Shown here: positions 3,301-3,543 of the stretch, piece after piece
Layout: every line of letters begins with the position of its first letter
Numbering within the stretch: position 1 is the stretch's first letter
From: Alphaproteobacteria bacterium
GTDB taxonomy: Bacteria > Pseudomonadota > Alphaproteobacteria > Rs-D84
Assembly: GCA_017960855.1 (NCBI GenBank)
Contig: JAGCYJ010000008.1
Coordinates: forward strand, 44,654-108,653
DNA: 64,000 nucleotides
Direction of reading: 5' to 3'
Program-made: the position numbers and the translations under genes
Notes under the pieces: model-generated
Seen by the model: the letters and a program-made list of their open reading frames with translations, nothing else
What the model was told of the DNA's origin: nothing
Databases searched by the model: none

Positions 3301-3401
3301 TGGTGCGGGCGAAGGGAATTCCTCGGCATTTCTTGCCTGCGGGCAAACCGTAACGATTTCACTGCGTTACACTTGTGAAATCTACTTGGTTTCGAACCCT
3401 C
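3301..3401 (-). other. Truncated and interrupted copy of the tRNA-Gly 3' end (pseudo-tRNA fragment, att-like scar).
   Basis: Read on the minus strand it is GAGGGTTCGAA, then a ~71-nt hairpin-rich insert, then TTCCCTTCGCCCGCACCA. This matches the T-arm, acceptor 3' strand and CCA of the adjacent tRNA-Gly, with the insert inside the T-loop. Confidence 0.5.
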
Positions 3402-3469
3402 TTTGCCGGGTTCTCTTCCGTCGCCACAATCCAAAAACAAACCCGACCACAAAGGGTCGGTTTTATTTC

Positions 3470-3543
3470 TGGTGCGGGCGAAGGGAATCGAACCCTCGTC
3501 TTCAGCTTGGGAAGCTGACGTGCTACCATTATACCACGCCCGC
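3470..3543 (-). tRNA. tRNA-Gly (anticodon CCC), CCA encoded.
   Basis: Reverse complement: GCGGGCGTGGTATAATGGTAGCACGTCAGCTTCCCAAGCTGAAGACGAGGGTTCGATTCCCTTCGCCCGCACCA. The anticodon stem is TCAGC/GCTGA with loop TTCCCAA. The acceptor is a 7-bp stem and the T-loop is TTCGATT. Confidence 0.85.

Follow-up and report, generated by a model that had tools for sequence, protein, structure and literature searches.

The RtT element of Escherichia coli has been known since the tyrT locus was sequenced, and to our knowledge no function has been accepted for it. The repeat, the RNA of which is also termed RttR, is linked to tyrT-tyrV (Bosl and Kersten, 1991, as cited in PMC4986893; Rfam RF00391). RtT-family RNAs have also been reported beside Asn and Lys tRNA genes in Pasteurellaceae, and RtT is described as released during tRNA processing and is implicated in the response to amino-acid limitation (PMC4986893). 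Two units of comparable architecture are described here, one behind a tRNA-Gly(CCC) gene and one behind a tRNA-Pro(GGG) gene, in a 64-kb stretch of an alphaproteobacterial contig (JAGCYJ010000008.1, positions 44,654–108,653 of the forward strand; assembly GCA_017960855.1). The window, as used below, is this whole stretch of 64,000 nt. ARAGORN and Rfam scans reveal exactly two tRNA genes in it, both on the minus strand, and a class A RNase P RNA at 27583–27891, and the window is therefore part of a bacterial chromosome. On balance, the two units are probably divergent RtT-type elements, each matched to its own tRNA.

A first-pass annotation of this DNA had noticed a second, interrupted copy of the tRNA-Gly 3′ end downstream of the gene. 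The copy is real. Two occurrences of the 19-mer ATTCCCTTCGCCCGCACCA, and no more, are found in the window, one at the tRNA 3′ end (3470–3488) and one at 3301–3319, and shuffled sequence gave no match in 100 shuffles, even with three mismatches allowed. Judged by sequence, the interrupted copy would be the 3′ half of an element of ~115–130 nt that belongs to the tRNA's own transcription unit. The parts of the Gly locus are as follows.

3470–3543, minus strand: tRNA-Gly(CCC), CCA encoded (ARAGORN, Rfam)
3301–3432, minus strand: Gly companion unit, RtT-like, 132 nt (sequence, fold, homologues)
3408–3428, minus strand: 5′ arm UGUGGCGACGGAAGAGAACCC, imperfect antisense of tRNA positions ~49–73 (sequence, duplex energies)
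3392–3401, minus strand: sense copy of the T-stem 5′ strand plus UUCGA, GAGGGTTCGA; 3391–3401 with the following (A) (sequence)
3320–3391, minus strand: 72-nt insert at the T-loop position (sequence, homologue alignment)
3301–3319, minus strand: exact 19-nt copy (19/19) of the tRNA-Gly 3′ end including ACCA, ATTCCCTTCGCCCGCACCA, which is the 3′ strand of terminal helix P1

The Pro locus has the same layout.

56388–56464, minus strand: tRNA-Pro(GGG), CCA encoded (ARAGORN, Rfam)
56235–56350, minus strand: Pro companion unit, 116 nt (sequence, fold)
56327–56348, minus strand: 5′ arm CAGUGGGUAUAACGGAUUGGAC, degenerate antisense of the tRNA-Pro 3′ third (sequence)
56306–56323, minus strand: extra hairpin after the 5′ arm (fold)
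56297–56305, minus strand: sense copy CAGGTTCGA, T-stem 5′ strand plus UUCGA (sequence)
56254–56296, minus strand: 43-nt insert with an 8-bp hairpin, CCCGCCAC-GAUA-GUGGUGGG (sequence, fold)
56235–56253, minus strand: copy of the tRNA-Pro 3′ end, ATTCCTGTCACCCCGAtCA, 18/19 match (sequence)

Both units lie on the strand of their tRNA and start ~37 nt past its CCA, and the distance from CCA to CCA is 169 nt at the Gly locus and 153 nt at the Pro locus. The spacing of ~50 nt originally given for the Gly copy has to be corrected, since its first sense piece (3392–3401) begins 68 nt past the tRNA, and the gap from GAGGGTTCGAA to TTCCC... measures 72 nt, not 71. The break in the copied T-loop is after A58 (UUCGA / insert / (A)UUCCC), and the insert thus lies within the T-loop, as had been stated. 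It splits the copy by 72 nt in the Gly unit and by 43 nt in the Pro unit. The 8-bp hairpin already noticed in the Gly insert (3355–3382; GATTTCAC/GTGAAATC) is present; its internal loop, AAGUAG / CGUYACG, is conserved, and covariation of its pairs is seen among homologues. Nested helices, CCC/GGG around GGCA/UGCC, are found at 3320–3343. The terminal copy of the Pro unit ends in TCA, not CCA. The same layout, the 18/19 copy and the 43-nt insert at tRNA-Pro bear out the previous view that the recurrence has a common cause and is not due to chance. The window carries single units behind the two tRNAs and no array, and no third copy of either tRNA 3′ end is found in it.

The antisense 5′ arms (3408–3428 and 56327–56348) had been overlooked. 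The true reverse complement of the tRNA-Gly segment is UGCGGGCGAAGGGAAUCGAACCC, as compared with UGUGGCGACGGAAGAGAACCC in the arm, which has GAGAA where the T-loop complement UCGAA is expected. Because the antisense arm and the sense pieces form an inverted repeat, the unit is more than a duplicated 3′ end; the last third of the tRNA is present in each unit as a decorated inverted repeat. The minimum free energy (MFE) structure of the unit alone shows a long terminal helix, P1, made of the 5′ arm and the terminal tRNA copy, a hairpin, P2, which in the Gly unit pairs GAACCC of the 5′ arm with GGGUUC of the sense copy, and the insert hairpins. Fold z-scores are −3.6 for the Gly unit and −3.1 for the Pro unit. 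Duplexes of the 5′ arms with the cognate tRNA 3′ region have energies of −20 to −34 kcal/mol, compared with −12 to −17 kcal/mol for shuffled arms.

Other conformations fare less well. An intact T-arm with an enlarged T-loop is a possible fold, but forcing the tRNA-like T-stem costs 8.4 kcal/mol relative to the P1/P2 fold; covariation is no test of this T-arm, since both of its strands are copies of the tRNA. Homologues do not keep the H-type pseudoknot that is conceivable for the window's insert (GUAACG/CGUUAC); their loop folds as a short inner stem. A two-piece tmRNA, a tRNA with a T-loop intron and a split or permuted tRNA find no support from ARAGORN or Rfam, and the 5′ half is absent. There is no cloverleaf in either unit: only the two canonical tRNAs are called, and the units give no Rfam tRNA match even at E ≤ 10. 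The alternative offered originally, a small tRNA-like RNA gene, comes near to what the evidence supports.

Homologues of the Gly unit were searched for with a pattern scan of one genome per species, the pattern fixing 23 of the 132 positions. Units were found behind tRNA-Gly(CCC) in 13 gut alphaproteobacterial metagenome-assembled genomes (MAGs), which include Ca. Enterousia and ‘uncultured Rickettsiales’ UMGS and RUG bins, and one further unit (L146), found by synteny alone, is 89% identical to that of the window. The window belongs with these MAGs by its CorA and LysM homologues, and the upstream genes (DnaK, PFK and LysM protein) are syntenic, with 52–91% protein identity. Related units are 72–89% identical to the window's Gly unit, as compared with 41–69% for adjacent non-coding flanks and 57–78% for the hairpin spacer. 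The 3′ copy matches the tRNA at 16/16 positions in every related locus.

The 13-sequence Gly alignment shows 94% of cells paired in the proposed structure, with nine pairs that have changes on both sides, a covariation not reached in any of 500 shuffles; shifted registers leave only 27–49% paired. The covarying helices are the three inside the insert, whereas P1 and P2 are invariant within Gly units. Within pairs, the excess of G-U over A-C (33:13) favours structure on the tRNA-sense strand, i.e. RNA. The deviations of the arm from perfect antisense, a bulged partner of C68 and GAGAA, are conserved. An iterated alignment (A2) was discarded, as it drew in the tRNA genes themselves. In two MAGs (L011, 4574–4900, and L020, ~7000–7289), tRNA-Gly(CCC) is followed by ~69-nt tandem repeats, each ending in TTCCCTTCGCCCGCACCA and having a T-loop-like gap of only ~14 nt; this is the same theme in a reduced, arrayed form.

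CorA homologues led to Pro loci, the units of which have motifs in common with Gly units (GGAAGAGAACC, GAAAACAAGUA or GACAAUGAGUAG, and CGUCACGAAUGCCCCACAG). A covariance model built from Gly units (R1) matches the Pro unit of L127 with 24 bits (E = 3e-4) and those of L128 and L137 with ~14 bits, and a 5′-module profile recovers every Gly unit and most of the Pro units (E = 1e-5 to 1e-11). P2 is preserved between tRNA types by a compensatory change in step with the tRNA T-stem, the pair being C-G in seven Gly units and U-A in six Pro/Tyr units. Pair counts across tRNA types cover P2 and lower P1 only; the mixed-type MAFFT alignments (A3–A5) are one column out of register in the acceptor part of P1. 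Units of the Gly and Pro types belong to a single family. The pattern with which metagenomes were scanned for Pro-type units was too permissive, and nearly all of the 104 matches are chance ones; only L077/L106 look related. This unrelated metagenome contig (L077, 931–1070, the same as L106) has tRNA-Pro(GGG), then 3 nt, AGGTTCGA, 31 nt and TTCCTATCACCCCGACCA, a fragment split in the T-loop that is without antisense arm and without spacer hairpin.

E. coli RtT has the same layout. RtT is the only Rfam family that aligns over the whole Gly unit, and the 5′ modules of Gly, Pro and Tyr units align gap-free over ~45 columns (MAFFT). The 5′ strand of E. coli RtT, GGGGAAGGAU, is antisense to AUCCUUCCCC of tRNA-Tyr, and the window's arms are likewise antisense to the T-stem 3′ and acceptor 3′ strands; GAGAA replaces UCGAA in E. 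coli RtT and in the Gly arm alike. In E. coli RtT, GAACCUU or GAAGCUU is followed by a short loop and then AAGGUUCGA, so that the antisense/sense hairpin is GAACCUU/AAGGUUC where the Gly unit has GAACCC/GGGUUC. The insert after A58 is 67–68 nt in E. coli RtT and 72 and 43 nt in the window. An E. coli unit ends with the last 19 nt of the tRNA including CCA, a feature matched at 19/19 positions in the Gly unit and at 18/19 (TCA) in the Pro unit. E. coli RtT and the window's units are also alike in lying directly 3′ of the tRNA, on the same strand and, in the window presumably, inside the tRNA operon; the annotated E. coli rttR is 171 nt long, beginning 7 nt past the tyrV CCA and stopping at the CCA that ends the first unit.

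There are differences as well. E. coli RtT forms tandem arrays with a partial last unit, whereas the window has single units, and tandem or truncated second units are found in relatives (L127, L128, L146 and L014). The repeats are of similar length, 178 bp in E. coli and 153–169 nt in the window. The partner of E. coli RtT is tRNA-Tyr of an enterobacterium rather than tRNA-Gly(CCC) or tRNA-Pro(GGG) of an alphaproteobacterium. A ~50-nt spacer precedes the arm in E. coli RtT, where the window has a terminator-like hairpin. The terminal helix extends up to the discriminator base in the window, whereas E. coli RtT leaves CACCACCA unpaired. In addition, the insert hairpins of the window are unlike those of E. 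coli RtT, and the window has no tpr-like open reading frame (ORF). Kinship with RtT is shown for the architecture; common descent is plausible but has no statistical support.

The context of the two units suggests how they may be expressed. Four further features are relevant.

3555–3583, minus strand: promoter-like site for tRNA-Gly, TGGACA-17-TAAAAT (promoter scan)
3433–3469, minus strand: terminator-like hairpin between tRNA-Gly and the Gly unit, with an A-tract, a G+C stem (3443–3460) and a U-tract (terminator scan)
56351–56387, minus strand: long A/U-rich hairpin between tRNA-Pro and the Pro unit (fold)
56204–56227, minus strand: strong intrinsic terminator, a 10-bp stem plus U-tract, directly 3′ of the Pro unit (terminator scan)

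A promoter-like site is present upstream of each tRNA, and the CTGGAC box of the tRNA-Gly site is kept in related loci, but no promoter-like site belonging to the Gly or Pro unit itself was found. Each spacer hairpin has an A-tract on one side and a U-tract on the other. The helix of the Gly spacer hairpin can be extended, as the tRNA CCA pairs with UGG; the Pro spacer hairpin is too weak to be called by the terminator scan. The order tRNA, leaky hairpin, unit and terminator would then make up one transcription unit, and co-transcription of the unit with the tRNA, followed by processing at the CCA end of the unit, is probable. The RNA would fold into a long terminal helix with the tRNA copy as 3′ strand, the small GAACCC/GGGUUC hairpin and the insert hairpins. 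P1 would resemble an acceptor/T-stem minihelix with a 3′ ACCA tail, and tRNA-processing enzymes may in this way define the ends of the unit, in line with what the rttR annotation suggests for E. coli. Each read-through tRNA transcript would thereby be accompanied by one stable structured RNA. The most likely role is that of a mimic of, or a competitor for, the 3′ end of its own tRNA, made in step with that tRNA; mimicry or competition is suggested by the maintained identity with the neighbouring tRNA.

Several other known RNAs share some of these properties. Bacterial RNase P takes hairpin or minihelix substrates, and stable RNAs with tRNA-like ends arise from tRNA operons, e.g. the species 1 and 2 RNAs of phage T4. 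These have in common with the window's units a long helix with a 3′ RCCA tail inside a tRNA transcription unit, which tRNA-processing enzymes might mature; the helix in the window differs in having an internal loop and a bulge. The small RNAs (sRNAs) from 3′ external transcribed spacers of tRNA operons, such as 3′ETS-leuZ, are short unstructured sponges with no tRNA copy. They are also freed by processing from a tRNA 3′ trailer, but the element described here duplicates the 3′ third of the tRNA in both orientations. The tRNA-like domain of tmRNA, including the acceptor piece of the two-piece alphaproteobacterial tmRNA, resembles the units in its acceptor/T-arm mimicry, terminal CCA and inserted structured domains. 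However, the window's elements have no alanine identity pair and no tag reading frame, and their acceptor sequence is copied from the neighbouring tRNA. ARAGORN finds no tmRNA in the window, and the Rfam tmRNA_permuted model gives only 10–15 bits against a cut-off of 47, with the weak match covering a different stretch, the tRNA 3′ end plus hairpin.

Presence and absence of the unit in related genomes were sampled by synteny and are free of search-pattern bias; the distribution is patchy. Among Gly loci, L146 has a unit, L142 has only a remnant, and L143 and L145 have none. Among Pro loci, units are present in L127, L128, L130 and L137/138, remnants consisting of a truncated 5′ arm in L129 and L139–141, and no unit in L131 and L133/134; L126, L135 and L136 have no tRNA at this position. 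Two pairs of genomes, L128/L129 and L130/L131, have identical CorA proteins and differ by exactly one unit within each pair, the difference being bounded by the repeated ‘tRNA 3′ end plus hairpin’. Homologous recombination between repeats explains this exact presence or absence as well as attachment-site (att) recombination does. A second copy, truncated or decaying, is found in L127, L128, L146 and L014; where copies are in tandem, one remains intact and the extra copy decays. The element thus appears to turn over by recombination between repeats, and the size of an array would shift by recombination between the repeated segments.

Genes for small GIY-YIG proteins are found at some of these loci. 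A small GIY-YIG ORF lies right after the CCA of the Gly unit in L008 (~2900–3250) and L010 (~3470–3800), and in L008 a degenerate copy of the tRNA 3′ end (ATTCCCTTCGCCTGCAC), the third at this locus, comes after it. In L133 (1249–1491) a GIY-YIG ORF is just upstream of tRNA-Pro. These ORFs look like homing-endonuclease-type cassettes that land at copies of tRNA 3′ ends.

It should be pointed out that a number of results weigh against an assignment of the units to the RtT type. The Rfam RtT model gives the Gly unit 16.2 bits (E = 0.5–1.5), below the gathering cut-off of 45, and does not match the window's Pro unit, L009 or L127; E. coli RtT units score 133–137 bits, and the Rfam consensus is visibly Tyr-specific. 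Conversely, E. coli RtT units are detected neither by R1 nor by an nhmmer profile of the 5′ module made from alphaproteobacterial units only. The RtT link therefore rests on architecture, not statistics. R1 also misses the Pro unit of the window, a more reduced form with a TCA end, and the search pattern, with 23 of 132 positions fixed, imposed part of the invariance in alignment A1. The element is dispensable and is absent from several close relatives. Finally, the 3′ copy in L130 and L137 mismatches the acceptor strand of the adjacent tRNA: these Pro units (L130, 5620–5747; L137, 2395–2545) end in CTACGGCGACCA, and the adjacent tRNA ends in CACCCCGACCA. The 5′ arm of L137 still fits the tRNA. 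The L130 and L137 units suggest that units or unit ends have been exchanged between tRNA loci.

The explanation given first for the duplicated 3′ end was an attL/attR footprint, left when an element, island or phage was inserted by a tyrosine integrase, the crossover being in the T-loop. An intact tRNA with its 3′ end repeated directly farther downstream is indeed the classic signature, and presence/absence polymorphism at the repeats is a further point of likeness. Plain uninterrupted 3′ fragments occur behind other tRNAs (L003, L005, L051 and L084), the flank downstream of the Gly unit is variable, with an 805-amino acid (aa) ORF in the window and rpsP-rimM-trmD in relatives, and the GIY-YIG cassette of L008 is bounded by the third, degenerate copy. 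As a starting assumption an integrase was reasonable, yet it is unfit for the case in the window, and we consider this origin extremely improbable. att repeats come with an integrase and cargo, and neither is present here: no recombinase or integrase domain was found in ~35 ORFs of the window, including every ORF next to either unit, and only 150–169 nt, a hairpin and an antisense arm without any kilobase-scale cargo, lie between the repeats. No third copy in the window bounds a downstream island, and a phage database and IMG/VR have no similar sequence. An att footprint would give an uninterrupted copy from the crossover site, without antisense arm or structured insert, and therefore fits poorly; the interrupted copy behind an antisense arm is no product of att recombination, and the interior is structured and is conserved, with covariation, across a family-level clade, in genomes that share only 52–86% identity in the neighbouring proteins. 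A caveat concerns an origin or mobility at the DNA level without an integrase, since the locus is recombinationally active: units are gained or lost at the repeats, GIY-YIG and HNH genes adjoin, and the downstream flank varies.

A second question is whether the units are neutral or selfish DNA repeats, the transcript being a functionless by-product. Such a repeat could have originated by a fold-back template switch at the terminator hairpin, which copied the tRNA 3′ third antisense and then sense, and unequal crossing-over between ‘tRNA 3′ end plus hairpin’ segments would expand or contract the array. The sense/antisense/sense order centred on hairpins, and a terminator stem that can extend into the tRNA and the antisense arm, agree with this, as do the tandem, truncated and decaying copies in L127, L128, L146 and L014, the differences in unit presence between genomes with identical CorA, the lack of the element in several close relatives and the partial unit that ends the E. 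coli array. A neutral birth by template switch and unequal crossing-over is possible. That the units are nothing but neutral repeats is unlikely: their deviations from antisense are conserved and not random (the bulged C68 partner and GAGAA, the latter common to E. coli), and compensatory changes in three insert helices plus a conserved internal loop point to selection on structure, so that a purely neutral reading is a poor fit. The units are also far better kept than flanking non-coding DNA, and one tandem copy stays intact while the extra one decays. A different proposal assigns to the element a specific role in cis, that of an ‘anti-tRNA plus decoy’ switch in read-through transcripts which would gate maturation or degradation of the precursor. 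By extension of the terminator the arm would capture the T-arm and acceptor 3′ strand of the tRNA, the downstream sense copy would retake the arm, and in trans the arm could sequester mature tRNA. The MFE structure of the whole tRNA-Gly plus unit transcript (243 nt, −105.4 kcal/mol) suggests a switch of this kind, as it places the antisense arm on the tRNA 3′ third via an extended terminator helix and pairs the tRNA 5′ acceptor strand with the unit's 3′ copy. The strong complementarity of the 5′ arms to the cognate tRNA 3′ region is consistent with it, as are the L137 arm, which fits the tRNA and not its own unit's diverged 3′ copy, and the solo antisense arms that outlast the rest of the unit in L129 and L139–141. 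Nevertheless, the basis of the switch is the predicted MFE structure of a 243-nt RNA, mature tRNAs have a stable fold and carry modifications, and E. coli RtT has no terminator hairpin between tRNA and arm; we regard it as very unlikely.

If the window's units are RtT-type elements, as we favour, a poorly understood family is extended across classes of bacteria and types of tRNA, and a design rule is exposed. What is conserved is the design and not the sequence: the arm is antisense, the sense copy is broken after A58, the insert is structured, and a copy with the CCA closes the unit. Rfam models RtT essentially as a Tyr-specific enterobacterial RNA, and current family models miss such elements; searches should scan relative to each tRNA's own sequence. 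Covarying helices, within-species presence or absence, solo antisense arms and mismatched 3′ copies provide natural variants for tests of function. The findings also caution that a duplicated tRNA 3′ end need not be an integrase scar. A broader proposition, which we think distinctly unlikely, is that RtT-type elements are a widespread, largely unrecognized class of tRNA-coupled RNAs, with arms rewritten for each tRNA, that act as ‘anti-tRNA plus decoy’ switches or as 3′-end mimics. The tRNAs served would then be those for Tyr in E. coli, Asn and Lys as reported in Pasteurellaceae, and Gly(CCC) and Pro(GGG) in the window. The elements would act on read-through transcripts by capturing the 3′ third of the tRNA that they follow, or would titrate a factor that recognizes the acceptor/T-arm of this tRNA, either of which would account for the maintained identity with the neighbouring tRNA.

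Uninterrupted fragments of tRNA 3′ ends deserve separate mention. They occur behind 2 of 40 tRNA genes in a small background set. In L003 (5778–5925), L005, L051 and L084, fragments consisting of the T-arm and acceptor 3′ strand are located 60–150 nt downstream of the tRNA, with a stable hairpin before each. They follow tRNA-Gly(CCC) in Beijerinckiaceae and Hyphomicrobium, and tRNA-Arg(CCG) in metagenome contigs. The spacer in L003 and L005 holds AACCCUCG, which is antisense to CGAGGGUU of the tRNA. Another metagenome contig (L095, 5695–12000) has an array of over 25 closely spaced tRNA genes, like that of a phage or mycobacteriophage-like tRNA island.

HNH endonuclease genes are found near the tRNA-Gly loci. 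One of these, at 3598–4098 on the minus strand, encodes 166 aa with an HNH domain that resembles those of IscB and Cas9, and it ends ~50 nt upstream of the tRNA-Gly(CCC) gene, both in the window and in all close relatives (L142, L143, L145 and L146). It is present upstream of tRNA-Gly with or without a unit, and no association between the gene and the unit was found. A second HNH family, of 199–206 aa, is found just downstream of the tRNA or unit in L002, L142, L143 and L146.

The 805-aa ORF (790–3207, minus strand) is directly downstream of the Gly unit and has its own promoter-like site (3229–3257). Pfam, NCBIfam, PADLOC and PDB sequences gave nothing meaningful for it, and PHROGs only a single weak match, of unknown function. 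Relatives have rpsP-rimM-trmD-rplS at this place, and synteny breaks exactly at the unit. A 154-aa ORF adjoining tRNA-Pro is probably no real gene, since a homologue search gave only two unhelpful matches. A small ORF with histidine runs (55848–56171, plus strand) is situated between the terminator of the Pro unit and corA. An ORF of 2356 aa (44424–51494, plus strand) separates the S1 gene from the adenylate kinase gene; in relatives the two are neighbours. Two radical SAM genes, at 4114–4956 (minus strand) and 52701–53567 (plus strand), have weak YydG-like (peptide epimerase) matches, and one is near each tRNA-plus-unit locus; the latter gene is followed by a 400-aa ORF without a family match. 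The same radical SAM pairings as in the window are found in L133 and L146.

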